Source: a virus
Taxonomy: Duplodnaviria > Heunggongvirae > Uroviricota > Caudoviricetes
Virus record (IMG/VR): IMGVR_UViG_3300045988_134234
Location: 1-55,008 of that record
Length of the DNA: 55,008 nucleotides
Strand: one strand, 5' to 3'
In this document: one piece after another, positions 4,380-35,590 of the stretch
How the letters are laid out: each line of letters opens with the position of its first letter
Numbering within the stretch: position 1 is the first letter of the stretch
The notes under the pieces: generated by a model
Told to the model about the DNA's origin: nothing
Database searches by the model: none
The model's input: only the letters and a program-made list of their open reading frames with translations
Made by a program: the position numbers and the translations under genes

Positions 4380-4640
4380 TTGGCAGCCTCCTTTGACTAA
4401 GTTAAGGAGCTACCGCGTGAGGTTCCAATCTCAATGGCGGTAGCACTGACTGGGTTGGAACTACCGGCGTCAAAGGGAACCGGCCTGCCTTTCGGCAGCC
4501 CAGCCAGCACTACCATTGATCTCTGAGCTAAACGCTACGTATGGCTGTGCGATGGCGTGACACAAAAAAAGACGCTTTCGGCGTCTGTGTCGCCTTTGAC
4601 ATTATCCGGGGTTCCAATCCCGGCACCCGTTTTTCTAAGG
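4380..4640 (-). ncRNA. structured leader / candidate antisense-regulatory RNA (C4-like hypothesis)
   Basis: About 260 nt untranslated leader with repeated GATTGGAACC elements and a complementary GTTCCAACC element, multiple hairpins, and an anti-SD hairpin (CTCCTT...AAGGAG) sequestering the RBS of the 71-aa gene. Confidence 0.25.
4562..4586 (-). terminator. rho-independent terminator (minus strand)
   Basis: GACGC-cgaaa-GCGTC hairpin followed by T7 on minus strand. Confidence 0.55.
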
Positions 4641-4690
4641 TGCCGTAGAAATATACCTCACGATAATGCCAGGGCGCAACAGTCAGTATT

Positions 4691-4858: not shown

Positions 4859-5179
4859 TTTGACCCCCCCAGCGCGAGTAAAGAATGCAGATTATCGCGT
4901 GAGTGGCGGACAACGAGTGATGGGAAAAGACAGTAGCTGTTCATAGTGTAGTGACTCCTTGCTTTCGGAGCCGCCATCGACTGTTCCACGGTCTGGTGGC
5001 GGCGCAATAAAGGTTGGAACACCGTGAGTCAACGGGGGCTTTTCAGCCACCTATATTGCACCGCCATTGGTATGGCGGCGGCAATCATACGAAAAACCAA
5101 ACGGTTTGTCTCAAAAAGTTGACCGGTGTACCAATCGGTTGTGAATGTACAACGGCGAATCTCACAATTCAACTTAAAA

Positions 5180-5202
5180 TGTTAGAAAATTAATTTATTA
5201 AT
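5180..5202. promoter_or_regulatory. operator-like motif TGTTAGAAAATTAATTTATTAA
   Basis: Member of a dispersed motif family (more than 12 copies) located at promoter regions. Confidence 0.4.
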
Positions 5203-5765
5203 TCAGTCACCATCTGATACAACGTCATTTCATCAGCATTGTGCCGCCTGAAATCTGCTTTGCCGCCTATTTTTCCATCAGCATGAACAGGAACCAACCA
5301 GGGGTATTGCTCGCGGATCTCTGCTGGCGCTGCGTGTTGATGGTGCCATTTACACAAAGGGAGGACGTATTTATGCGCGTTCTCTGCTGTTCTCCCGAAG
5401 ATGTGGTGCAGGGATACCACAGGGCTATGCTGTCCGTGCATATGGCAGGCAATGCAGGGGAGAGCACCGATGGCAGTTTGTATCCGGCGCTCATCTGCTG
5501 TGAGTGTTCTGCCTTTCAGGCCGCGTGACGCGCGAGTTTTTTTGACAGGAGCAGAAGCGGCCTTCTCTTTTCTTCGCTGTTCATATTGCTTCGCTTTTTC
5601 AATTTTCTTTTGCCGATATTCAGGCGATGCGGCTTTTTCTCGCGCACGCTGCTGCTGGCGTTGAGCTTGCTGAAGACGCTTTGCCCTTTGTTCCTCCCGC
5701 CATTTCGGATCAGCCAGTTTTTGCAGGGCTTTTTGTGTCTGTTTCTCCCAATAGCTTTGCTTCAT
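5190..5765 (-). CDS. HNH-family nuclease with basic N-terminal region (P1 Ref-like)
   Basis: C-terminal C..C / HH...N..H...LCKWHH HNH-like motif; Lys/Arg/Gln-rich low-complexity N-terminus; ATG chosen at Met15 of ORF 5190..5807 (a TTG at 5807 is the alternative); operator palindrome immediately upstream. Confidence 0.5.
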   Translation of the reverse strand: MKQSYWEKQTQKALQKLADPKWREEQRAKRLQQAQRQQQRAREKAASPEYRQKKIEKAKQYEQRRKEKAASAPVKKTRASRGLKGRTLTADERRIQTAIGALPCIACHMHGQHSPVVSLHHIFGRTAENAHKYVLPLCKWHHQHAAPAEIREQYPWLVPVHADGKIGGKADFRRHNADEMTLYQMVTELIN

Positions 5766-5810
5766 AGAAATACCCGGTTTGTCTACATCGCCGCTATGGT
5801 TGATCAAATG

Positions 5811-5840
5811 TGTTAGAAAATCAAAATTGATTTTCTAACA
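5811..5840. promoter_or_regulatory. 30-bp near-perfect palindromic operator TGTTAGAAAATCAAA/ATTGATTTTCTAACA
   Basis: Inverted pair of the dispersed motif between divergent Ref-like gene and the 5882.. operon. Confidence 0.6.
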
Positions 5841-5881
5841 CAAAATGAAGATACTTTTTTCAGACGCTATATCAGGAGGTC

Positions 5882-6037
5882 ATGATGCTTGTCGCAATAA
5901 GTGCAATCCACCAGCAATCCGGTACAGAAATTGGGTTGCTATATGCCCTGTTTTTCACTGTCCTGGCGTTGTTTGAGCTGGGCATTGAACTCTTTGCTCT
6001 CATCAACTTTTGCGTAACGTTCCTGGGGAAACTTTGA
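5882..6037 (+). CDS. possible small membrane peptide (~51 aa)
   Basis: Strong AGGAGG RBS; hydrophobic MMLVAISAIHQQSGTEIGLLYALFFTVLALF...; stop overlaps ATG of next gene (TGATG); approximate coordinates. Confidence 0.35.
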   Translation: MMLVAISAIHQQSGTEIGLLYALFFTVLALFELGIELFALINFCVTFLGKL

Positions 6038-6648
6038 TGTCAAAACGCATTATGAAAATTTACATCGCGGGTCCGATGACTGGTTATCCCGACTACAACC
6101 GCACAGCGTTTTTTTCGAAAGCAAAAGAGCTGATGGAGGAAGGGCATATTGTTCTGAATCCGGCGCTGTTACCTGCTGGCCTCTGCCAGAGCGAATACAT
6201 GGATATTTGCCTTGCAATGGTGCGTTCGGCTAATGCGGTCTATTTGCTCAAGGGGTGGGAGGAATCAGTTGGCGCTCGTGCAGAGCACGAGCTGGCTCAA
6301 AAGCTGGGGCTGAATGTAATTTATGAGTCACCAACCAACATTGAATGCCAAGTTGCTCCGCATATTTACCGGGAACTGGTCAATGCACTGCGTGATATCG
6401 CTGCTGTATATCACGGCACAGAACAGCTTCGTGAGCGTTTAGCCCATACCATTTCCTATTACCTGTCTGCATCTCATGAGCACAAGCTCCGTCAGAAGGT
6501 AATGATCAAATTTATCATGAGGTTATCGAAATCCCTGGCAAACGCCGATCCAAAGAATCCATTACCGAAAGTGGCAATGAATTACCTGAAGTCCTGCAAC
6601 ATTGTTTCTGAAGATGGCGTTCTTTTGGTTAGAAGGAGTTCTGCGTGA
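6037..6648 (+). CDS. nucleoside 2-deoxyribosyltransferase-like (DUF4406-like) N-terminal domain protein
   Basis: KIYIAGPMTGYPDYN...VLNP...YLLKGWEESVGARAEHELAQKLGL resembles recalled DUF4406/NDT-like fold signature; internal ATG of ORF 6010..6648. Confidence 0.4.
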   Translation: MSKRIMKIYIAGPMTGYPDYNRTAFFSKAKELMEEGHIVLNPALLPAGLCQSEYMDICLAMVRSANAVYLLKGWEESVGARAEHELAQKLGLNVIYESPTNIECQVAPHIYRELVNALRDIAAVYHGTEQLRERLAHTISYYLSASHEHKLRQKVMIKFIMRLSKSLANADPKNPLPKVAMNYLKSCNIVSEDGVLLVRRSSA

Positions 6649-6962
6649 GCTGGCGGGGATGGGGAAGGGCAGAAATCATGATACTCCGCCAGTGCGCCGG
6701 GACTATGACAGTCGAGGGTATTGGGAGACTGATCGGGCGTACCGGTGGTGCTGTCAGGACTAAAGCGCGGCAATTGCGGATCAGCATGATTCTGAAAGGT
6801 GACTTTCACCAGTCAGCCAAATACCGGCAGAGCGATATAGAGCTGGCGCGGCAGCTTCATCAGTGTGGCGTTCCCCGCCGTGAGATCGCAGAAAAGCTCG
6901 AAATGCCCCTGGGCATGATTAATCAGTACGTTTATTTCGAAAGGAGAGTGCATGAAGTCTGA
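6645..6962 (+). CDS. small HTH-like DNA-binding protein
   Basis: GTG start after AGGAG; two HTH-like segments (GRLIGRTGGAVRTKARQL; REIAEKLEMPLGMINQYV). Confidence 0.4.
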   Translation: MSWRGWGRAEIMILRQCAGTMTVEGIGRLIGRTGGAVRTKARQLRISMILKGDFHQSAKYRQSDIELARQLHQCGVPRREIAEKLEMPLGMINQYVYFERRVHEV

Positions 6963-7455
6963 AGGTTTAACGCCCGCACAACTGGCAGAGCGTAACGCTG
7001 AGTATGTAACGGAAATTTCCCGACTTGAGAAAGAGCGCGCGGCGCTGGCGGCGGAGAATGCACTTGCTCGTAAAGCTGTTCAGGCATTCTGTGATGTTGT
7101 TGGCGACAACACTGAGATTATCTCCGAGTTGGTTGGGCAAGATGGCGTTCTGGTTATTTTGAAGGCCATGAAGGCAACAGGAAATATGTCAGCCACCGAC
7201 GCTTTCCTGGCTGAAATACGTGCGGAGGCACGCAACGAGGGGATTAACTACACCGCAAGCCGTCTTGCTGCTGCGTTCAATCACGGATTTATCAATAAGT
7301 CTTTGCGTGAAGTTTTCGACGTTACACGCATGATTTTGTCAGCGAAAGAAGAGTTGGCTAATGAACCGCATCCGATTGATGGCCTGTCCGGTGAATATGC
7401 GGAGAAATCCCTTGAAGAATGGGCGGAACAGATTCGCAAAGGAGTTCAGTCATGA
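6952..7455 (+). CDS. hypothetical coiled-coil protein
   Basis: AAGGAGAG RBS; coiled-coil segment ERAALAAENALARK also seen in the 8495.. gene. Confidence 0.45.
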   Translation: MKSEGLTPAQLAERNAEYVTEISRLEKERAALAAENALARKAVQAFCDVVGDNTEIISELVGQDGVLVILKAMKATGNMSATDAFLAEIRAEARNEGINYTASRLAAAFNHGFINKSLREVFDVTRMILSAKEELANEPHPIDGLSGEYAEKSLEEWAEQIRKGVQS

Positions 7456-7685
7456 GCATCCGAACTGAACATGGATTTGGTCCTTCAACGGTCGAAGTCG
7501 AATGGCTTGATGATTGCCCTAAGTGCCAGCACGGCAAAGCCAGGGTAACAGGATGGTCGGTAACCAAAGATTCTTTGTGGGCGGGTGATGAGGCCGTTTG
7601 TTCCAAATGCGGTCACAAAGGTGAAATCGATGCTGATGGAGAGAATGCCTGGGTGGAATGGGACGAAATCGAGGAGGCACAATGA
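7452..7685 (+). CDS. small zinc-ribbon protein (CxxC...CxxC)
   Basis: CPKCQHG...CSKCGHKG; start overlaps upstream stop. Confidence 0.45.
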   Translation: MSIRTEHGFGPSTVEVEWLDDCPKCQHGKARVTGWSVTKDSLWAGDEAVCSKCGHKGEIDADGENAWVEWDEIEEAQ

Positions 7686-8173
7686 GCAACATCGACATCG
7701 ACACACTGGCGCTGCGTGAGGCGGCAGAACGTGCAATTCCGGCAATGGAACGCCTGTTAATGTTGCCAGTTGATGATGATCTGATAAGTGAACAGGAACT
7801 TAAAGATTACGGTGTGGATATTGATGCGCTCAACGCCTTCAAATTTCTGGCCGGACCAGAAACCGTGCTGGCGCTTCTGGATGAACGGGAAAGAAACCAG
7901 CAATACATCAAACGCCGCGACCAGGAGAACGAGGATATTGCGCTAACGGTAGGGAAGCTGCGCGTTGAGCTTGAAGCAGAAAAACAGCGGGCAAAGGTTC
8001 TATTTATGGAAAATGCTCGGCTTAAGTCAGGCATAGCCGGTCTGATACACCTCGGTATTCGATATGCAGATGTTGAGGTCATGAAAATTGCTGGAGATGC
8101 CCAGCTTTCTACCCCATGCACTGACAGCATCATAAACAGCATTGCAACAGGCATTCGCATCAAAGGAGAGTGA
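7682..8173 (+). CDS. Ea22-like coiled-coil protein
   Basis: N-terminal [10 protein letters not shown] motif shared with the 12322.. gene; C-terminal GIRIKGE shared with the 12322.. gene. Confidence 0.4.
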
Positions 8174-8174
8174 G

Positions 8175-8498
8175 ATGACCACATCGCATTCTGCAATCAC
8201 CCAGGAAAAAGTATTTCGCTTGCTCGAACGTCTGGAGGCGCTCGCCACGGAGGAGGATATATCCCCGGAGATGCTGGTCGAGTGCAGCCGTGTGATATTG
8301 CGTCGCAAGAACGACATCGCGCGGCTGACATCTGGCGCACCATCCGTATCAGCCAGTCCAACGCTTTATTGCAGCTTCTGCAACAAATCCCAGCACACCG
8401 TTAAAAAGTTAATTGCCGGGGACAACGTTTTCATCTGCAACGAGTGCGTGAAAGATTGCAACAACATTATCCAGGAAGAGCAAAGGGAATCAGCATGA
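8175..8498 (+). CDS. small protein with ClpX-type N-terminal zinc-binding domain (ZBD) at its C-terminus
   Basis: [39 protein letters not shown] closely matches recalled E. coli ClpX ZBD ([39 protein letters not shown]); no AAA+ domain; AAGGAG RBS. Confidence 0.7.
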
Positions 8499-9205
8499 AA
8501 TTTTCCAAATTTTCTGAGTTGGTGAATCGTATTTTGTCCAACAACCACAGCCATCGTCGCGATATGGATGTAACGATCGTTGTTCATTCGCCTGGCAGCA
8601 TTGGTTCAACACCTTCAGTTGAGGTTCAGTCAATTCACGCTGGTTTTGATTGGGATTCCGGGAAAGTGCTGATTTTCCCAGCACAGCCACTGACCACGCT
8701 AACACCAGAACAGATTACTGATATCACGGATAGTGTGCGCAAAGGTCAGTCTTGGCACGCATATCAGGAATACAAGAAGCATAAAGAGCAGTTGGAAAAA
8801 TTGTCGATTGAACTGGATGCTGCAAGACGGCGCATTACAGAACTGGAGAGCGAACGCGCGGTGCTGGCGGCGGAGAATGCGGAGCTGAAGTCTGTGCACC
8901 CTCAACCATTCGGAGCTGAGATGATGAAGGCTCTTGATGCGTATGAGAAGCATCAGGATGAAGTGCCAGAGACAGGAATGCTCAATGCATTTTTCATCTT
9001 GCGCGACAGCATCCGTGTTGAAACCCCAGCCACCGACTCTTTCCTGTCTGAAGTACGGGCGCAGGGGGTGGATATGGCTCGTAACGCGATGATTGATTTT
9101 GTTGATGGTGAAGTTGGGCCAAACAAGAACGTTCCGGGGCTGATTAGAGGCGCAGAGATATGCGTAAGTATTGCTGAACAGCTTCGCAAAGGAGGCAACC
9201 AGTGA
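8495..9205 (+). CDS. hypothetical coiled-coil protein (Ea22-like region)
   Basis: Internal ATG of ORF 8444..9205 overlapping upstream stop (ATGA); [17 protein letters not shown] coiled coil. Confidence 0.45.
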
Positions 9206-9477
9206 ATATCGACACGACAATAACGATCGATACGCTCCTAAATACCGGTCTGGCACTTCTCGGTTGGCTTTACATCATGTCCCGTACATGGCGATGGCTG
9301 GGTTCCATTTTCCTGAAACAGTGGAAAAAACGGCGCAAACAGGAACTACGCCAGAAGGCATTAGAAGCGTTCTATGACGCATTTGAACTTGGCAGCATTG
9401 AACCCGGCACAACAGCGAGGATAGCGACAAAAGGCGACCTGATGATAGTGATGTTCAGACAGGAGAAAACCAAATGA
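9202..9477 (+). CDS. small membrane protein
   Basis: Hydrophobic segment LLNTGLALLGWLYIM followed by basic stretch. Confidence 0.4.
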   Translation: MNIDTTITIDTLLNTGLALLGWLYIMSRTWRWLGSIFLKQWKKRRKQELRQKALEAFYDAFELGSIEPGTTARIATKGDLMIVMFRQEKTK

Positions 9478-9701
9478 CAGAACAGACGATGACAAATCGC
9501 GAACTTGTTGATGCCGCGATTGAACTTGCTGGCGATTTTTATTCCATGATGGGGTACACGCATCGCCCTGGCTTCAAATATTGGGAGTCTCCGCACCCGC
9601 AAGAGCAACAGGTATTTCAAATGGCCTGCCGCGCTTTTGAAGTTATTCGCGGTTCTGATGTGATGGACGCGGTTGCTGATTTGGAGGATGTTGCAGAATG
9701 A
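9474..9701 (+). CDS. hypothetical protein (75 aa)
   Basis: ORF in tightly packed same-strand array. Confidence 0.4.
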
Positions 9702-10381
9702 TCACCGTTAACGGCCAGGCTTTATATGGCCGTATTGATGGTTCAGGATACAGAAACATATGGGTTGTTGGTGATTTGCACGGTTGCTACACCCTACTTA
9801 TGAATGAACTCCATCGTGTGGATTTTGACCCGACACAGGATTTACTGATATCGGTTGGCGACCTTATCGATCGCGGCACCGAAAATGTTGAATGCCTGGA
9901 GCTATTGCAGATGCCCTGGTTTCGGTCGGTTATGGGAAACCACGAGCGATTAATGATCGATGCGTTAAGTCCCGCAGGCAATGTGAATAACTGGCTAATG
10001 AATGGCGGTCAATGGTTCTTCATGCTGGACGCTGATCGGGAAATATTAGCCAGGGCGCTGGTGGAGCTGGTAAGACGTTTGCCCTATATCATTGAGTTGA
10101 ACACCGGGCATGAAACTATCGTTATAGTCCATGCCGACTATCCTGATAACGAATACCAGTTTGGTAAACCTGTTAGCGATCTCAATGTTACCTGGCGTCG
10201 TGAGCGATTTTATGACGCGGTTGATGGTGTTGGTGGAATGATCACTGGTGCAGATAGCTTTATTTTCGGGCATACGCCAGTAAACAGCCCGAAATCTTTC
10301 TGGAACCAGCACTACATAGACACTGGCGCGGTTTTTTGCGGAAATCTGACGCTAAAGCAGGTGAAGGGAGGACAGCCGTAA
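9698..10381 (+). CDS. Ser/Thr protein phosphatase (lambda-PPase/NinI-like metallophosphoesterase)
   Basis: GDLHG, GDLIDRG, GNHE, and later HADYP / GHTP metallophosphatase motifs. Confidence 0.85.
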
Positions 10382-10413
10382 TCCTGAACACATCGTTTAT
10401 GCACTCAAAATGG

Positions 10414-10443
10414 TGTTAGAATATTGATTTTAATTTTCTAACA
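10414..10443. promoter_or_regulatory. operator-like inverted pair TGTTAGAA...TTTCTAACA
   Basis: Between phosphatase gene and the 10486 gene. Confidence 0.5.
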
Positions 10444-10485
10444 TATTATTTTACCGCTTGGAACAAAACAGAGTCGGTATACATT

Positions 10486-23462: not shown

Positions 23463-23484
23463 TGTTAGAAAATTAATTTATGAG
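23463..23484. promoter_or_regulatory. operator-like motif TGTTAGAAAATTAATTTATGAG
   Basis: Overlaps 3' end of cre-like gene, upstream of 23405 operon. Confidence 0.4.
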
Positions 23485-24506
23485 TCCATCAGGCGACTAT
23501 TTGCACCAACGGATGCCCCGCTACGGCGCAAATATCGCATAAGTGTTTCGGGCTTTTTCCATGTGCCTTCCTGCATGATCTCGACCATTGACACCTGTTT
23601 CTCAGCCATATCAATTGCCGCACCAACACGCGCACTATGACCTGTCCACGTCCGGTATCTTCCTTTGTTCGGCGTTGCATCTCGTTTGTTCAGCAACCCC
23701 CAGGCATCGCTGAATATTTTCTCCATTGCAGGTGCAGTAAGGGGAGTTGTCGTGATTCTGGCCTTATTACTGCGGTGTATTGGCGGGAATAGCACCGCGT
23801 CCGGATGTTGACGAAGTCCGGACACCTCCAGCCAGTCGTTCAGTACGGCGGTAGTGCAACGAGAAAGCACCTTATCAAGTCCGGCGGCGGTCGTGATGGT
23901 CTTCGTGTGTGAAATATGCAGCGTTACAGTGTCACCTGTTTGGTCCAGATCTCCGACGCGGATGCGCGAGATTTCTGACATACGCATCAGGGTATTGTAT
24001 GCCACGAAGAGAAACGCCCGATTGCGCAGGTCCACCAGCCGCTCGGAACGGGACAGCAATACGTCGAGCAATTTCAGATCATCCCACCGCAACGGTATAG
24101 CCTGGCCTGTTCGCTCGCCTTTTTCCGTTGCCGCTTCGCGTCGGATGCGCCGCATGGCCAGAGACACACTTTTATCGTCCGACAGTGGCGGGAGGCCACA
24201 TTGCGAAAGCAGCATGTTAAGCATGGCATAGTGCTTATCAATGGTGGTCGAAGCCAGATCGGCCTCATGCAACTGGAGAAGATACTCGCGGGCCATTTCC
24301 GGCGTAATCGGGAACCAGGGGCGCTGGCGCGAATTACACCACCGCGCCCAGGAATGAAACACCAGACGGAGATCACGAAGTGTATTTGGGGCATAAGCTC
24401 CCTGGTCGTTCATGAACTGCATAAAGTTTTTTGCAGCTTCCTGGTATTCGGTGCCAATATCGCGCAGAAAACCACCAGAACCGCCGGAGATAACTAGTTC
24501 ACCCAT
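23478..24506 (-). CDS. cre: Cre-like tyrosine site-specific recombinase
   Basis: 342 aa; colinear with recalled P1 Cre (HSWARWC/RSWAAWC, KHYAMLNML, VSLAMRRIRRE, AYNTLMRMSEISRIRV, GHSARVGAAIDMA, W...Y near C-terminus). Confidence 0.85.
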   Translation of the reverse strand: MGELVISGGSGGFLRDIGTEYQEAAKNFMQFMNDQGAYAPNTLRDLRLVFHSWARWCNSRQRPWFPITPEMAREYLLQLHEADLASTTIDKHYAMLNMLLSQCGLPPLSDDKSVSLAMRRIRREAATEKGERTGQAIPLRWDDLKLLDVLLSRSERLVDLRNRAFLFVAYNTLMRMSEISRIRVGDLDQTGDTVTLHISHTKTITTAAGLDKVLSRCTTAVLNDWLEVSGLRQHPDAVLFPPIHRSNKARITTTPLTAPAMEKIFSDAWGLLNKRDATPNKGRYRTWTGHSARVGAAIDMAEKQVSMVEIMQEGTWKKPETLMRYLRRSGASVGANSRLMDS

Positions 24507-24657: not shown

Positions 24658-24691
24658 CTAACTTTAAATAATGCCAATTATTTAAAGTTAG
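24658..24691. other. lox-like recombination site (13-bp inverted arms, 8-bp spacer)
   Basis: CTAACTTTAAATA-ATGCCAAT-TATTTAAAGTTAG; arms resemble loxP arm ATAACTTCGTATA; about 150 bp upstream of cre-like start. Confidence 0.6.
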
Positions 24692-24887: not shown

Positions 24888-25925
24888 ATGAGTAAGAAGT
24901 CGATCGAGAATGAGTACAAACGGTTCCTGCAAACCGCTGAACGGTGGAAAGAGCTGGTGGTCGCAAACTCTGTTTTCCATGATACCAGTTATGTTGGCGA
25001 GGAATTTCGCCATGTTGCATTAACACATGATCCGGCTGTATTAGAAGAAGCTGAAAAATGCATAGCCGAATGGAAAGCCTTTGTTGATCTGTGTCGCAAG
25101 GATGATGACAAAGCCTCAAACATTGTTGAGTCGGTTTATTTACCGATCCCATTCATTGTTGAGGATACTAATCAGAGTACGCATATCGTTATGCAAAGCG
25201 CAACCACAACGAGAACATTTACGCGCGAAGACCTGCTGAAAAAATACGATAAAACTATAAAGAAAAGCATGAAAAACAGGATATTTTCACAGGTTGTCGG
25301 TGCGCTTGAAGAAGAACGCAGATTCTTCGCCGCTGAACGTGAGGGCGAGGTATACCGCGCAAGAAAAGAAGGTTATACCGATGTGGTGATTACCACCAAT
25401 ATCGAGGGCAACAATGGACTTTCACGCTTCAGAGTGGGTACGCACGGTGCGCTGATCTTTGCCAGAAAAGCAAACACAGAGATTCCCGTTGTTAACAACG
25501 TTGGTGAGCGCCGCACCCTTACCATTTACACTGGCATTAAACCGCTTCCGTGCGGACTTCTCGGCGAATTTGACCTTTATCGGGTTCGTGATCTGGAAAA
25601 GCAGCAGCCAAGCTATGTCGTGAAGTCATATATCCTGAGAAACATTGATATCCGCAATCAGAGTTTAAAAAACAAATCAGATAAAATGCTGGCCGAAGCC
25701 GATCCAGCCATACACCAGATCGTTAGCCGGAAAATTCAAGAGGCTAAAGATGCAATGGCAAGGCTGGATAAAATGGACCTGGAACTACTGGAAGTTATGA
25801 TTGCCTCCGGCGATGACCTGACAGGCATCCGCCTTACTGAAGCCAGGAAAAAATACGGTAAAAGCGTTGAAGAACGCTATGGGTACACATTCACACAAAC
25901 GATGTACGCGGCAAAACTCTGGTAA
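24888..25925 (+). CDS. hypothetical protein; candidate master repressor by position and operator context
   Basis: Internal ATG (Met22) of ORF 24825..25925 with AGGAA RBS; between lox/cre and terminase, convergent with pacB; no sequence-level family assignment possible. Confidence 0.35.
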   Translation: MSKKSIENEYKRFLQTAERWKELVVANSVFHDTSYVGEEFRHVALTHDPAVLEEAEKCIAEWKAFVDLCRKDDDKASNIVESVYLPIPFIVEDTNQSTHIVMQSATTTRTFTREDLLKKYDKTIKKSMKNRIFSQVVGALEEERRFFAAEREGEVYRARKEGYTDVVITTNIEGNNGLSRFRVGTHGALIFARKANTEIPVVNNVGERRTLTIYTGIKPLPCGLLGEFDLYRVRDLEKQQPSYVVKSYILRNIDIRNQSLKNKSDKMLAEADPAIHQIVSRKIQEAKDAMARLDKMDLELLEVMIASGDDLTGIRLTEARKKYGKSVEERYGYTFTQTMYAAKLW

Positions 25926-32930: not shown

Positions 32931-33139
32931 GATGATGACCCGATGCAGCCTGGCCCACTTAACATACTCACTGCCAGATCATCATCAATGAACACCTTAA
33001 AAAGACCTTCCGTGGCTCAAGTCACTGTCGTTTACTCCGTAAAATGCTCTCGCTGAAACCACTTTACGCACTAAACCTGCCGGGCATGTATTTGCACGGT
33101 GCCGGAGCTTTCCCTTACCTTAAAATTTACTTTCTAACA

Positions 33140-33150
33140 CTTAAATTTGT
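33140..33150. promoter_or_regulatory. operator-like motif (ACTTTCTAACA)
   Basis: Single arm near the head of the non-coding island. Confidence 0.35.
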
Positions 33151-33259
33151 TTTATGCTGGTGGGGAAAGACAATGAAGTGACTATCAAACCCGCAAGCGA
33201 CATGGGAAGCTCCCCACCAGCACGAAAAATTCTATGTTAAGTTAACCTCATAATCAATA

Positions 33260-33289
33260 TGTTAGAAAGACAATTCTAATTTTCTAACA
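33260..33289. promoter_or_regulatory. operator-like inverted pair TGTTAGAAA-N12-TTTCTAACA
   Basis: Perfect 9-bp arms; downstream of the 402-aa gene, at the head of the non-coding tRNA island. Confidence 0.5.
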
Positions 33290-33291
33290 CA

Positions 33292-34500
33292 TTATTTCCC
33301 GTAAAGATTTTCAACTCCACCGTTCTTCTTATCCCACTCGTTCGCCCATACCCGGCAAGCATCAATTATTTCCTGACGGCGATCGCCCTGCATGAACGGA
33401 ATGCTTTCATGAAAGCTGCTTGGAATGCAGGCCACACTGAACACTGTATCAAACTCAGTCTGCTTGATTGCCTCCAACGTCTCTGGACGCATTTTCAATT
33501 CGTCGATCGGTGCATCCTTAGAGTCCATAATCCGGCGATGCAAGCGTGGAAAATCCGTTTCAAGGTACGCCATAATTTTATCTGCCAGACATTCGTCTAT
33601 GTCGGTATTCCAGTCAGTTTCGAAGCCAGGAATTCGGTAGTAAAGCGGCGTTCCCCATACTGACGGGATCACATCCATCGTCAGCAGGCGGCTGGTTCTG
33701 ATTTGCTGATGGTAATTTGCCGTCAGCAACGCTTCGCCACGTTGCCCAGTCTCCGCGACCAGACCATGCGGAAACTCATGGATATAGGCAATAGCTTCTC
33801 TTCCGTCATACATTAGCGGGAATGTCTCTGGCCTTTGCCCCATGCCACAGGCGCGATTCAGATCATGACCAAGCTCTGAACACTCTCGTTTCAATGTTTC
33901 AATAATGCTCTGCGCCGCTGCTAACTTTTTACGCAGTGTGACGAGTTCGCCTTGATACTCAACGCATTGCTGATTTAGCTTGGTTAAACGCTCTTTTAGT
34001 TCGCGACGCTCTCTTTTCAGCGTGCGGTTATCTTTCTCCGCAACATCCAGTCGTTTTGTCAGGCTTGGCGGATAGTCTTTTTTGTAACGACTCAAATCGA
34101 CTTCAGCAGATTTGCGCAGTGTATTTGCCTGCTCAAGACGCGCCTCCAGATTGCCGATCTCATTACGCATATTCGCGGCAAATTGATTAACTGCATCCCC
34201 CAGGCTTTCAACTGTCGCTGATACACCAGTGACTTGAGAAAAACGGATCAAGCCATCATTAACGGCTTGCTGATATTCCTCAAACTGATCCACCAGCTTA
34301 TTGTAATCAACTGCCCCATCATCAAGGAGCTGGTTGATTTCCGCCACCAGGTTATCTGTAGTGGCAATGACGCTCTCATGCAGTCGCTTTGACAGGTCAT
34401 CGCCCGGATTTCGTTTCTGTATAAGCGCGATTTGTGTCCGCAGTGTTTCAATTGCGGTTGAGATGATCTCCAGGCTTGATGATTCTACTTGCTGACTCAT
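33292..34500 (-). CDS. hypothetical protein (402 aa), coiled-coil N-terminal half
   Basis: Monocistronic unit bracketed by operator motifs and an upstream terminator. Confidence 0.55.
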   Translation of the reverse strand: MSQQVESSSLEIISTAIETLRTQIALIQKRNPGDDLSKRLHESVIATTDNLVAEINQLLDDGAVDYNKLVDQFEEYQQAVNDGLIRFSQVTGVSATVESLGDAVNQFAANMRNEIGNLEARLEQANTLRKSAEVDLSRYKKDYPPSLTKRLDVAEKDNRTLKRERRELKERLTKLNQQCVEYQGELVTLRKKLAAAQSIIETLKRECSELGHDLNRACGMGQRPETFPLMYDGREAIAYIHEFPHGLVAETGQRGEALLTANYHQQIRTSRLLTMDVIPSVWGTPLYYRIPGFETDWNTDIDECLADKIMAYLETDFPRLHRRIMDSKDAPIDELKMRPETLEAIKQTEFDTVFSVACIPSSFHESIPFMQGDRRQEIIDACRVWANEWDKKNGGVENLYGK

Positions 34501-34520
34501 GTTTGTTCCCTTTCTTGAAA

Positions 34521-34534
34521 TTAGTTTTCTAACA
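34521..34534. promoter_or_regulatory. operator-like motif (TTAGTTTTCTAACA) in promoter of the 402-aa gene
   Basis: About 20 nt upstream of the 34500 start. Confidence 0.4.
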
Positions 34535-34575
34535 TATTTTATTAGTATGCAATTTCAATAAAAAGACTCAGGCAA

Positions 34576-34597
34576 CAAAAAACCCGCCAACTGGCGG
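34576..34597 (-). terminator. rho-independent terminator (minus strand)
   Basis: CCCGCC-agtt-GGCGGG followed by T6 on minus strand. Confidence 0.5.
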
Positions 34598-34609
34598 GTT
34601 TATGACCGT

Positions 34610-34936
34610 TTAGACGTGTTGGAGTAGCATGTATGCCATATAAATCAAAGCTATCAGTACGACAACTACCTCTGAAATTCTAAACGCGCGCTTTACTATC
34701 TGCCGCTCACCGTGGGGTATACCATCCGAGTATTCCTGATCCGTCATTTTCCCCAGCCAGCTTACCGATAACAGAGCTGCATTCTCACTCATATCAAGTT
34801 CACTTACGGCCTCTCGTATAAGTGGAGCGGTTACTTTCCTGGAAGCAACTTTCATGGTTATGCTTCTGGTTCTTCCGGCGTCATCAGCAAACGTCAGATT
34901 TACGTGGTGTTTTCTGCTCAATGAACAAACTCCCAA
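34610..34936 (-). CDS. hypothetical tail-anchored membrane protein
   Basis: C-terminal hydrophobic VVVVLIALIYMAYMLL. Confidence 0.4.
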   Translation of the reverse strand: MGVCSLSRKHHVNLTFADDAGRTRSITMKVASRKVTAPLIREAVSELDMSENAALLSVSWLGKMTDQEYSDGIPHGERQIVKRAFRISEVVVVLIALIYMAYMLLQHV

Positions 34937-35118
34937 TCATTGGCTGTCGCGCTTTCCGGGGTAATGCATACCTTGTCGCCGGTAACTATGTTTCGGGCTT
35001 CTAATGCCCCATCATCCATCTTTTTAAGCTCTATACAGAAAGAATGAGGCCATGAGCAGCGACGAGCAACAACGTTAGCACCGGCAGGGATAAGTTCAGC
35101 CACGTTAAGTAAACGCAA
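34918..35118 (-). CDS. hypothetical small protein (66 aa)
   Basis: ORF only. Confidence 0.3.
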   Translation of the reverse strand: MRLLNVAELIPAGANVVARRCSWPHSFCIELKKMDDGALEARNIVTGDKVCITPESATANDWEFVH

Positions 35119-35132
35119 AACGATTTCTCCGT

Positions 35133-35576
35133 TTAATCAAGATTTACATATTCCGTGATAGCTTTTATGGCTTCATCGGCACTGCGCGCCTCAAAGCAGT
35201 AATAGCCTGCTTCCGTGAGGCGGGTCATCCAGACGAGCTGTTCGGGAGTCAGACGGTTTCTCCCGTGCTTCATCTCAATGCGCATTCCGTGATACCCACC
35301 ACGAGCAAGGTCAATAGAAAGGTCCGGATAGCCCTTCTTCTGACCTTCTGCCACCATCTTAATGGCTGTCCTTTTGCCTCTCAGGCCGCCGTTCGGTGTT
35401 GAGTGTGTGTGCTCATACACGTATCGCATGTTGCGATACAGCCAATCCAGAACGCGAACCTGTTCGTAATGTTCGTAATTCCGTTTTAATAAGTCAGGAT
35501 TTCTTTCTAACTCTCTTAGTGCAGCAGCGTGCGGGGATATTTCAGAATACGCACTATGATGCCTGCGCCTTCGCAT
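35133..35576 (-). CDS. VRR-NUC domain nuclease-like protein
   Basis: GYPDLSIDLARGGYHGMRIEMK resembles recalled VRR-NUC (PD-(D/E)xK) signature; ATG at second Met. Confidence 0.55.
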   Translation of the reverse strand: MRRRRHHSAYSEISPHAAALRELERNPDLLKRNYEHYEQVRVLDWLYRNMRYVYEHTHSTPNGGLRGKRTAIKMVAEGQKKGYPDLSIDLARGGYHGMRIEMKHGRNRLTPEQLVWMTRLTEAGYYCFEARSADEAIKAITEYVNLD

Positions 35577-35579
35577 CAA

Positions 35580-35590
35580 ATTTCTAACAC
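35580..35590. promoter_or_regulatory. operator-like motif abutting VRR-NUC start
   Basis: TGTGTTAGAAATTTG immediately 5' of start on minus strand. Confidence 0.35.

Follow-up and report, generated by a model that had tools for sequence, protein, structure and literature searches.

In our reading, the region between positions 5809 and 6648 probably forms the start of an early operon that, by analogy with phage P1, is controlled by a D6-type C1 repressor; its first two genes encode a membrane peptide and a DUF4406 protein predicted to act as a nucleotide-monophosphate N-glycosidase. The window (the whole 55,008-nt stretch of DNA analyzed) is, by sequence comparison, a D6-like, P1-family phage-plasmid or plasmid prophage of Escherichia coli. 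It is 88% identical in DNA to phage D6 and ∼99% identical to E. coli plasmids, including pEC361_3 (99%), and D6-type c1, dre, and rox are all present. The gene order, operator position, and TGATG junction described below are the same in D6 itself (orf87, which is ref; orf88; and orf89, which encodes DUF4406) and in D6-like plasmid prophages of 80–95 kb from E. coli, Salmonella, and Shigella. The locus is an ordinary, already-annotated accessory early region of a well-populated phage-plasmid group.

In a lysogen, C1 would, by analogy, bind a 34-bp operator that separates the operon from the divergently transcribed ref gene and so keep the operon silent. On derepression or infection, the rightward transcript would be translated first into the 50-aa membrane peptide. 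The DUF4406 enzyme would then cleave the N-glycosidic bond of nucleoside 5′-monophosphates, and this activity would alter or sanitize nucleotide pools early in lytic growth.

The probable operator palindrome and its half-site family

The boundary between ref and the rightward genes is occupied by a perfect inverted repeat of 16+2+16 bp, TGTGTTAGAAAATCAA AA TTGATTTTCTAACACA. A preliminary description of this DNA had placed a 30-bp operator palindrome here; the palindrome is real, but its length was understated, as it covers 34 bp. It is the longest perfect inverted repeat in the window, with arms of 16 bp vs. at most 10 bp in all 30 composition-preserving shuffles. The features relevant to its function are as follows.

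4433–4520: C4 antisense RNA (Rfam match), in the immI block
5179–5193, minus strand: monovalent half-site TTAATTTTCTAACAT, at the 3′ end of ref and upstream of the c4-icd-ant (immI) block
5190–5765, minus strand: gene for a Ref-like RecA-dependent nuclease (PF16786, 6.2e-36), running leftward from the palindrome
5796–5824, minus strand: putative leftward ref promoter, read from an alignment (−35 TTGATT at 5824–5819, 17-nt spacer, −10 AACCAT at 5801–5796)
5809–5842, no strand: perfect 34-bp palindrome, putative bivalent operator
5810–5824, minus strand, and 5827–5841, plus strand: the two half-sites of the palindrome, in 15+2+15 geometry
5827–5855, plus strand: putative rightward sigma-70 promoter, read by hand (−35 TTGATT at 5827–5832, 17-nt spacer, −10 GATACT at 5850–5855)
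10413–10444, no strand: second putative bivalent operator palindrome, which ends the peptide/DUF4406 operon and starts the DUF968 (pdcB-like) operon
24888–25925: c1 repressor gene, 345-aa product, 80.6% identical to D6 c1, beside dre and rox

The palindrome pairs one half-site, TTAATTTTCTAACAY, with its own inverted copy. The half-site has 17 matches in the window vs. 2.0 expected; its 9-mer core, TTTCTAACA, occurs 14 times vs. 0.43 expected. Besides the copy at 5809–5842, the 15+2+15 arrangement recurs at 10413, 29301, and 33259. Positions are kept as well as sequence. Across lineages that differ by ∼25–30% in DNA, sites remain upstream of c1, between ref and c4, and before DUF968. The half-site at 5179–5193 keeps its place in the D6, Salmonella, E. 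fergusonii, and Shigella loci, the palindrome at 10413–10444 keeps its own in three related loci (L006, L011, and L013), and the region of the 34-bp palindrome is conserved across lineages in the alignment.

This layout resembles the C1 regulon of P1, in which operators are likewise dispersed at ref, in the immI/c4 block, at c1 itself, and in the pdcB region, and the overall genome layout matches. As in a P1-type C1 immunity regulon, asymmetric operator copies are scattered and some are palindromically paired, and c1 lies next to a recombinase and a lox-like site. P1 ref is annotated under a C1 operator located between the −35 and −10 of P2ref, and we take the half-site at 5179–5193 to be placed like P1 Op51. 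The sites themselves differ. The P1 C1 operator consensus, ATTGCTCTAATAAATTT, does not match the operators of the window; compared with the P1 Oref site, TTAATTTTCTAACAY is unrelated in sequence, and it is unlike the P1 site that begins ATTGCTCTAAT. This difference fits a heteroimmune repressor. A tblastn comparison did not detect the D6-type C1 (345 aa) as similar to P1 C1, and the examined stretch of the D6 record holds no annotated operator features.

By analogy with P1, the D6-type C1 repressor very likely uses the 34-bp palindrome as a bivalent operator. The repressor control proposed in the preliminary description is in line with the dispersed half-site family, its conserved positions, and the D6-type c1 in the window, from which we infer binding. 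The perfection of the inverted repeat could also suggest a hairpin-type element, for example a terminator, an origin, or a site of recombination; rox, which serves for recombination, is likewise a perfect palindrome in the window. We regard this as very improbable: the palindrome is AT-rich and lacks a T-tract, monovalent half-site copies are scattered at promoter-like positions, and in the D6 clade, including D6 itself, the left arm that is perfect in the window is degenerate, whereas the right arm, with which the −35 overlaps, has stayed perfect. Such an arm pattern is what a protein-binding site would show, rather than a hairpin.

From the sequence, we infer divergent promoters flanking the palindrome. 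The rightward −35 sits inside the right half-site and the leftward −35 inside the left one, and therefore a bound repressor would shut both promoters. The equivalent of the rightward promoter in D6 is TTGATT-16-TAATAT. On the leftward side, the D6-clade −10 is AATCAT, and the promoter region falls within a near-invariant block, CTATG(A/G)TTGATC, with one variable position. The proposed hexamers are weak (8/12 vs. consensus), and a consensus promoter scan called neither promoter; the rightward one was missed because 8/12 scores below the threshold. The Ref protein of the window is 54% identical to P1 Ref, and ref is annotated in pEC361_3 at coordinates matching 5190–5765. The TTG start at 5807 in the open reading frame list is probably an artifact, since it overlaps the operator and relatives are annotated with the ATG at 5765. 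P1 does not carry the peptide/DUF4406 pair beside ref; its neighbor there is mat.

The peptide gene and the extent of the operon

Downstream of the operator, the rightward genes are arranged as follows.

5874–5879, plus strand: Shine–Dalgarno sequence AGGAGG, 5′ of the peptide gene
5885–6037, plus strand: peptide gene, 50 aa (alternative start at 5882, giving 51 aa), equivalent to D6 orf88 and phrog_8890
6035–6039, plus strand: TGATG stop–start overlap, with the peptide stop at 6035–6037 and the DUF4406 start at 6037–6039
6645–10381, plus strand: nine further tightly packed or overlapping operon genes, encoding an HTH protein, phrog_614, phrog_4446, an Ead/Ea22-like protein, a ClpX-type zinc-finger protein, phrog_368, DUF4752, phrog_4132, and Metallophos
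9698–10381, plus strand: lambda-type Metallophos phosphatase, the last gene of the operon

The peptide is hydrophobic (GRAVY ∼1.5), in agreement with the ∼51-aa hydrophobic product and AGGAGG ribosome-binding site described beforehand. The GGAG of the Shine–Dalgarno sequence is kept in all aligned relatives. The ATG at 5885, with a 5-nt spacing from it, appears the likelier start than 5882, because the divergent versions in E. fergusonii and Shigella have no other ATG. AlphaFold2 returned a single long helix over residues 2–49, with pLDDT above 88 for residues 21–50; as modeled, the product is a single-helix membrane peptide. It matches phrog_8890 (6.9e-31) and is 72% identical to D6 orf88.

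The small open reading frame might instead be a mere leader, an upstream or spurious frame whose sequence is immaterial: it is short, matches nothing in Pfam or NCBIfam, and is often unannotated in plasmid records. The substitution pattern argues strongly to the contrary. Close pairs have dN/dS values of 0.03–0.11, and 35 third positions vary vs. 16 second positions. The core LALxELGIELFA (including ELGIELFA) is invariant in spite of synonymous change, with 9 of its 12 motif codons varying at the third position only, and the frame is open at the same length in all lineages compared. By these measures, the peptide gene is a real protein-coding gene under purifying selection, conserved as the preliminary description had it, and the leader reading, to which we give hardly any weight, is already largely refuted. 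A type I toxin–antitoxin system was also considered and rejected; there was no Rfam match over 5800–6100 or elsewhere in the peptide/DUF4406 stretch, Rfam matches being confined to the immI RNAs farther left, no antisense promoter was found, and the gene is the first in a long repressed operon.

The gene appears restricted to the D6-like phage lineage, judging from database searches. Word-indexed searches with the single peptide and with a five-sequence profile returned no relatives beyond three peptide clusters. Searched exhaustively with a HMMER profile, 1.84 billion representatives yielded these three clusters again, one spurious match, and no outside relatives.

The TGATG overlap noticed earlier is present and is invariant in 7/7 compared loci, with a weak Shine–Dalgarno-like GGGG/GGAG ∼8 nt upstream. 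Translational coupling of the peptide and DUF4406 is plausible from this arrangement. No stable RNA structure was found around TGATG, which is less structured than shuffled sequences (z = +1.58), and a structure-dependent form of coupling is therefore unsupported. The pair had been called a mini-operon, a description that does not hold. Eleven tightly packed plus-strand genes run without gaps from the peptide to 10381, ending before the second bivalent operator, and we found no convincing plus-strand terminator before that point. As read from the sequence, the peptide and DUF4406 genes thus open an early operon of 11 genes; they do not make up a self-contained unit of their own. Its conserved core comprises the peptide, DUF4406, and the Metallophos phosphatase; a minimal three-gene version exists, and which genes lie between DUF4406 and the phosphatase varies from lineage to lineage. 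Stop–start overlaps are the general style of this operon, and TGATG is therefore no evidence of a special peptide–enzyme link.

The DUF4406 domain and its predicted activity

The DUF4406 protein is 203 aa long and has two parts.

6037–6336, plus strand: DUF4406 catalytic domain, residues 1–100, with Y9, AGPMTG, and S77-x-G79-A80-x-x-E83, and an NDT/DNPH1/MilB-like alpha/beta fold
6337–6648, plus strand: C-terminal helical extension, residues ∼101–203 plus the stop codon, with low pLDDT in an all-helical model

The N-terminal domain matches PF14359 (DUF4406) with E = 4.5e-35 and 120.4 bits vs. a cut-off of 22, over residues 6–96 and the full model (1–91). It has the flavodoxin-like alpha/beta fold of the nucleoside-deoxyribosyltransferase (NDT) superfamily, to which DNPH1, MilB, and DUF1937 also belong, and its best Foldseek and PDB sequence matches are NDTs, among them the Trypanosoma brucei enzyme (2a0k), with whose KIYIAGP the KIYIAGP of the DUF4406 protein aligns. 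The NDT/DUF4406-like N terminus originally proposed is borne out by these matches, and on this evidence, the domain belongs to the NDT superfamily. Y9, the Tyr of the beta1 loop (Y-x-A-G-P) that partners the Glu in this superfamily, and A11, G12, and P13 each reach at least 90% conservation among the homologues. E83, the putative nucleophile of the (D/S)-x-G-x-x-x-E motif that follows beta3, is invariant in 43 homologues and aligns with the Glu of T. brucei NDT (DCGTAFE) and of BcmB (SPGTHIE). S77, also invariant, lies six residues before E83, at the position of the NDT Asp, and is aligned with the BcmB Ser. D55, a candidate for the third triad residue (Asp/Asn; D80 in DNPH1 and N77 in DmtZ), is conserved in closer homologues only, and the alignment shifts in distant ones.

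The identity of residue 77 bears on the predicted substrate. In type I/II NDTs (PF05014; T. brucei 2a0k and L. leichmannii), the catalytic Glu aligns with E83, but an Asp that holds the 5′-OH stands where DUF4406 has Ser. The Asp/Asn responsible for holding the 5′-OH is absent from NDT hydrolases (PMC12884076). DNPH1 contacts the phosphate through S98 and uses E104 as its nucleophile, and S97 of MilB is the equivalent Ser (PMC10603095); S77/E83 correspond to S98/E104 of DNPH1 and to S97/E103 of MilB. DUF4406 thus has a Ser six residues before the Glu, as expected of a nucleotide N-glycosidase. We therefore predict cleavage of nucleoside monophosphates, because S77 matches the phosphate-binding Ser of DNPH1, MilB, and BcmB and not the NDT Asp. 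Beyond these motifs, DUF4406 has no significant sequence similarity to DNPH1/Rcl, MilB, or BcmB. Its domain is also smaller (∼95 aa) than those of DNPH1, MilB, and BcmB, in which the second phosphate ligand is S128′ (DNPH1) or R23 (MilB).

A natural fusion points in the same direction. One metagenomic protein joins DUF4406 to PF18909, a domain that converts dNTPs to dNMPs (PMC12884076). The replacement of the NDT Asp by Ser, together with this fusion to a dNTP diphosphohydrolase domain, points to hydrolysis of nucleotide monophosphates, and on sequence grounds we predict that DUF4406 is a nucleotide-monophosphate N-glycosidase. A phage enzyme of the NDT superfamily with such an activity is DmtZ of Z-genome actinophages, a proven dAMP hydrolase that is also a deoxyribose-5-phosphate transferase and is paired or fused with a dNTP hydrolase, in parallel to the DUF4406–PF18909 fusion (PMC12884076). 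According to its authors, DmtZ has no Pfam model and hence is not a DUF4406 member (PMC12884076). Unlike the actinophages that carry DmtZ, the phage of the window has no PurZ/DpoZ pathway. Goku gp111, labeled a MazG-like pyrophosphatase, was considered as a possible fusion and rejected, as it is really a 110-aa DUF4406-only protein whose label is probably an annotation slip.

DUF4406 might instead be a true nucleoside 2′-deoxyribosyltransferase that exchanges bases for salvage or for a non-canonical base in phage DNA. NDTs head its matches in Foldseek and by PDB sequence, the NDT label is common among annotated phage homologues, and an NDT linked to a diaminopurine pathway has been reported. 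We nevertheless consider this unlikely, given that the protein has no PF05014 match at E ≤ 0.1, that an invariant Ser replaces the Asp, and that genes of a modification pathway, such as PurZ or DpdA, are absent from the operon. The part in DNA modification or signaling suggested in the preliminary description likewise finds no specific support, as no partner modification genes are present. Still less probable is a TIR/ThsB-like anti-defense enzyme acting on NAD+, NAD-derived, or cyclic-nucleotide immune signals: the motifs YxAGP and SxGxxxE belong to the NDT branch and not to TIR, and no PADLOC or other defense-related match was found. NCBIfam likewise returned nothing.

The peptide and DUF4406 could form a dedicated two-part module, with stoichiometry fixed by TGATG: a toxin and its partner, for instance, or a nucleotide hydrolase tethered to or gated by the membrane. 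All D6-like lineages examined carry the two genes together, against a mosaic background of downstream genes, the peptide is found in 111 plasmids and most of the 881-nt region in 112, and the junction is invariant. Against this, DUF4406, which also occurs in PHROG 355, is present in 771 of 50,697 phage records and in lambdoid nin regions without such a peptide, which was absent upstream of DUF4406 from a Vibrio prophage and two lambdoid nin regions inspected. The peptide family is found nowhere else, stop–start overlaps are standard throughout the operon, and co-occurrence is explicable by a common promoter-proximal position. Moreover, a version without the C-terminal domain keeps the peptide, and there is therefore no obvious docking domain. 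We judge such a module unlikely. A more elaborate proposal, to which we attach little credence, is that the acidic transmembrane peptide and the DUF4406 N-glycosidase jointly form an early anti-defense or host-takeover device with the downstream Ser/Thr phosphatase as its third part; in one version, the enzyme would be recruited or activated at the inner membrane, there to destroy either an immune signal derived from nucleotides or one particular (d)NMP pool.

Among unassigned "nucleotide metabolism" domains in temperate phages, DUF4406 ranks with the commoner ones. The invariant Ser-x5-Glu and the fusion to a dNTP diphosphohydrolase domain turn that label into a concrete prediction, an N-glycosidase acting on (d)NMPs, which, if true, would annotate the whole family. 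The operator map, in turn, offers a usable description of the D6-type C1 regulon.

The C-terminal half of the protein has no Pfam match. A stretch of ∼45 aa within the extension is common to EaA/DUF551 proteins and to P1 PmgT/PmgU. DUF4406 versions of 97 aa in a 78-kb plasmid lineage lack the extension, and six related loci (L006 and L011–L015) carry the N-terminal domain only. By sequence comparison, the extension is a shuffled, mosaic helical module.

The phage-plasmid and its repeated half-site

Over 5100–7000, the window shares 88% identity with the P1-like plasmid prophage Escherichia phage D6, and its 5780–6660 interval is 98–99% identical to nonmobilizable ~90-kb E. coli plasmids such as pEC361_3; 126 PLSDB plasmids match this interval. 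We found a D6-type c1 gene and a complete Dre/rox module, with the rox site lying between the Dre-like recombinase gene and c1. Directly after ref and before icd and a Rha/Ant gene come three RNAs (C4, isrK-like, and C4-like); this is an immI-type block, within which c4 may be duplicated. Together, the D6-like identity, the c1 gene, Dre/rox, and the immI-type block place the 5780–6660 interval in a D6-like phage-plasmid.

Features of the window (half-site, one arm of the palindrome; bivalent, two inverted half-sites)
4433–4520, minus strand: C4 antisense RNA (Rfam, 77 bits)
4565–4643, minus strand: isrK-like RNA (Rfam, 63 bits)
4992–5071, minus strand: second C4-like copy (Rfam, 42 bits, just under the gathering score of 45)
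5179–5193: half-site at the start of the c4/immI block
5809–5842: palindrome, with the half-site at the ref promoter
9698–10381, plus strand: lambda-type Metallophos phosphatase gene, last of eleven genes
10413–10444: second bivalent operator site, 15+2+15, after the Metallophos gene and before the DUF968 (pdcB-like) gene
23462: half-site downstream of dre
23478–24506, minus strand: Dre-like tyrosine recombinase gene
24658–24691: rox site, a perfect 15+4+15 palindrome identical to phage D6 rox
24859: half-site just upstream of c1
24888–25925, plus strand: D6-type c1 repressor gene, 80.6% identical to D6 C1
29301–29332: bivalent operator site, 15+2+15
33259–33290: bivalent operator site, 15+2+15

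The palindrome, noted as 30 bp in the preliminary description, is a perfect 16+2+16 inverted repeat and the longest in the window; across 30 composition-preserving shuffles, no inverted-repeat arm exceeded 10 bp. Its arm, TTGATTTTCTAACAC, occurs with up to three mismatches at 17 places (2.0 expected; shuffle maximum, 6), and the core TTTCTAACA occurs 14 times vs. 0.43 expected. The half-site consensus is TTAATTTTCTAACAY. Four sites (5810, 10413, 29301, and 33259) are inverted pairs of identical 15+2+15 geometry, and the rest are single; of the three pairs beyond 5810, we looked at the genes presumably governed by the one at 10413. Four half-sites cluster within 33126–35590.

The half-sites lie at positions that correspond to those of C1-controlled promoters in P1, whose RefSeq record annotates the ref promoter as under the C1 operator Oref. 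In the D6, Salmonella, E. fergusonii, and Shigella relatives, the sites keep the same relative positions despite flanking DNA that differs by up to ~30%. The left arm of the palindrome is degenerate in the D6 clade and the right arm is perfectly kept, which argues for protein binding and against the need for a hairpin; we infer that a repressor binds here. The half-site shows no resemblance to the P1 operator, and tblastn detected no similarity of the D6-type repressor to P1 C1, consistent with a heteroimmune repressor of distinct specificity.

Each palindrome arm contains TTGATT, and two divergent promoters can be proposed from the sequence, both with weak hexamers that a promoter scanner left uncalled in the window.

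Putative promoters at the palindrome
Rightward, plus strand: TTGATT-17-GATACT (TTGATT-16-TAATAT in D6)
Leftward, minus strand: TTGATT-17-AACCAT (AATCAT in the D6 clade), within the near-invariant CTATG(A/G)TTGATC

A Dam site conserved in all seven aligned lineages, the GATC within TTGATCAA (5800–5807), falls right beside the operator, in the spacer between the two hexamers of the putative leftward ref promoter. In a mechanically derived list of ORFs, ref begins at a TTG (5807) that overlaps the operator; relatives annotate ATG 5765, and the 5766–5807 extension is probably an artefact.

A membrane peptide at the head of a long operon

In the best-supported picture, an early accessory operon repressed by C1 begins after the palindrome; its first product would be a lineage-restricted membrane peptide and its second a probable nucleotide N-glycosidase. 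Databases already annotate the two products as "hypothetical protein" and "DUF4406 domain-containing protein." The proposal of a mini-operon is unsupported: past 6648, plus-strand genes abut or overlap up to the Metallophos gene, so that the pair heads an eleven-gene string reaching 10381, across which we saw no convincing plus-strand terminator. One divergent lineage has just three genes in its entire operon, the peptide, a 97-aa DUF4406 protein, and Metallophos, which therefore form a conserved core; the eight genes between core members here are mosaic insertions of the lambdoid ea/nin type. A PAPS-reductase-family gene occurs in some D6-like variants: it directly follows DUF4406 in an E. 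fergusonii plasmid (2332–3204 of locus L005) and lies further downstream, past the second operator, in loci L011 and L012 (~7960–8834).

The described AGGAGG ribosome binding site is present (5874–5879), with ATGATG after it. Spacing to the second ATG (5885) is a normal 5 nt, and the divergent versions from E. fergusonii and Shigella have this start codon alone; the strongly hydrophobic ORF (GRAVY ~1.5), previously put at ~51 aa, is therefore most likely 50 aa. AF2 modeled a single long helix (pLDDT 88–97 over residues 21–50). Overall the peptide is acidic, and its hydrophobic stretch holds two invariant Glu residues spaced by one helical turn.

Several lines of comparison show a real gene whose protein is under purifying selection. 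The ORF is open and of equal length in all seven compared loci. We counted 9 synonymous and 1 nonsynonymous changes between D6 and a Salmonella plasmid, and 27 and 18 between the window and D6. The dN/dS ratio is 0.03–0.11 for close pairs and 0.2–0.46 for distant pairs; of the shifted-frame controls, one exceeds 1 (1.2–3.8) and the other, at 0.33–0.46, overlaps the distant-pair range. Over nine loci, 35 third positions vary vs. 16 second positions, and 9 of the 12 codons of the invariant core LALxELGIELFA vary at the third position only. The peptide matches phrog_8890 (6.9e-31) and is carried by 111 plasmids (tblastn). Neither word-indexed searches nor an exhaustive profile search against 1.84 billion representatives turned up relatives outside the same three clusters, and the family is confined to the D6-like lineage.

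As described, the peptide stop (TGA, 6035–6037) overlaps the ATG (6037–6039) of the 203-aa DUF4406 protein; a weak SD-like GGGG/GGAG precedes this ATG, and the surrounding RNA is unstructured (z = +1.58). Stop–start overlaps are typical throughout this operon, so the junction is little evidence of a dedicated pairing.

A predicted nucleotide N-glycosidase

The suggested NDT/DUF4406 fold proved right. Residues 6–96 match DUF4406 (E = 4.5e-35), and the AF2 model, confident for most of this domain (pLDDT ~84–98; 67 for residues 11–20), has the order β1-α1-β2-α2-β3-α3-β4. Foldseek against the PDB returned the T. brucei and Leishmania deoxyribosyltransferases, MilB, BlsM, and DNPH1, each with probability 1.00. 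Among 43 aligned homologues, L71, S77, G79, A80, and E83 are invariant, and Y9, A11, G12, P13, M14, T15, G16, N21, F25, P42, A43, and W74 are at least 90% conserved.

A profile search of PDB sequences aligned the SxGAxxE motif with DCGTAFE of TbNDT and SPGTHIE of BcmB, a CMP N-glycosidase. By this alignment, E83 is the predicted nucleophile, and S77 falls where nucleoside transferases have Asp and nucleotide hydrolases Ser. Published structures support this reading: in DNPH1, S98 coordinates the 5′-phosphate six residues before nucleophile E104, with S97 its MilB equivalent (PMC10603095), and the Asp/Asn holding the 5′-OH in transferases is missing from hydrolases of the NDT superfamily (PMC12884076). 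The alignment gave no confident third member of the catalytic triad. Moreover, a metagenomic homologue (P0102, 215 aa) is a natural fusion of DUF4406 (3–102) with PF18909 (116–214), the dATP/dGTP diphosphohydrolase N-terminal domain, for which conversion of dNTPs to dNMPs has been demonstrated (PMC12884076); the fusion suggests a two-step route from dNTP through dNMP to free base. From the motif, the structures, and the fusion, we predict a (deoxy)nucleoside 5′-monophosphate N-glycosidase as the probable activity. The hint of DNA modification or signaling found no support. The main value of the finding is this testable biochemical prediction for a widespread, uncharacterized phage domain named in only three papers.

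The C-terminal half has no Pfam match and modeled poorly (residues 101–203). A ~45-residue helical stretch (6349–6500; residues ~105–155) is common to EaA/DUF551 proteins of P22-like phages, Eaa proteins of Klebsiella phages, and P1 PmgT/PmgU; it seems to be a promiscuous recombination module. The 97-aa versions, from a 78-kb plasmid lineage, are without this half, which is a shuffled accessory module.

The N-domain occurs in 771 phage records, including those of actinophages and of Vibrio and Pseudomonas phages, often near replication or nucleotide-metabolism genes, and in lambdoid prophage nin regions directly following the O/P replication genes. The peptide was absent from all three DUF4406 loci examined elsewhere; its pairing with the enzyme is therefore particular to D6-like phages. 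Mycobacterium phage Goku gp111 (110 aa; 2492–2824 of locus L018) matches DUF4406 and is annotated as a "MazG-like pyrophosphatase"; several actinophage homologues are similarly labeled "hydrolase" or "dCMP deaminase," and these labels are probably propagated misannotations.
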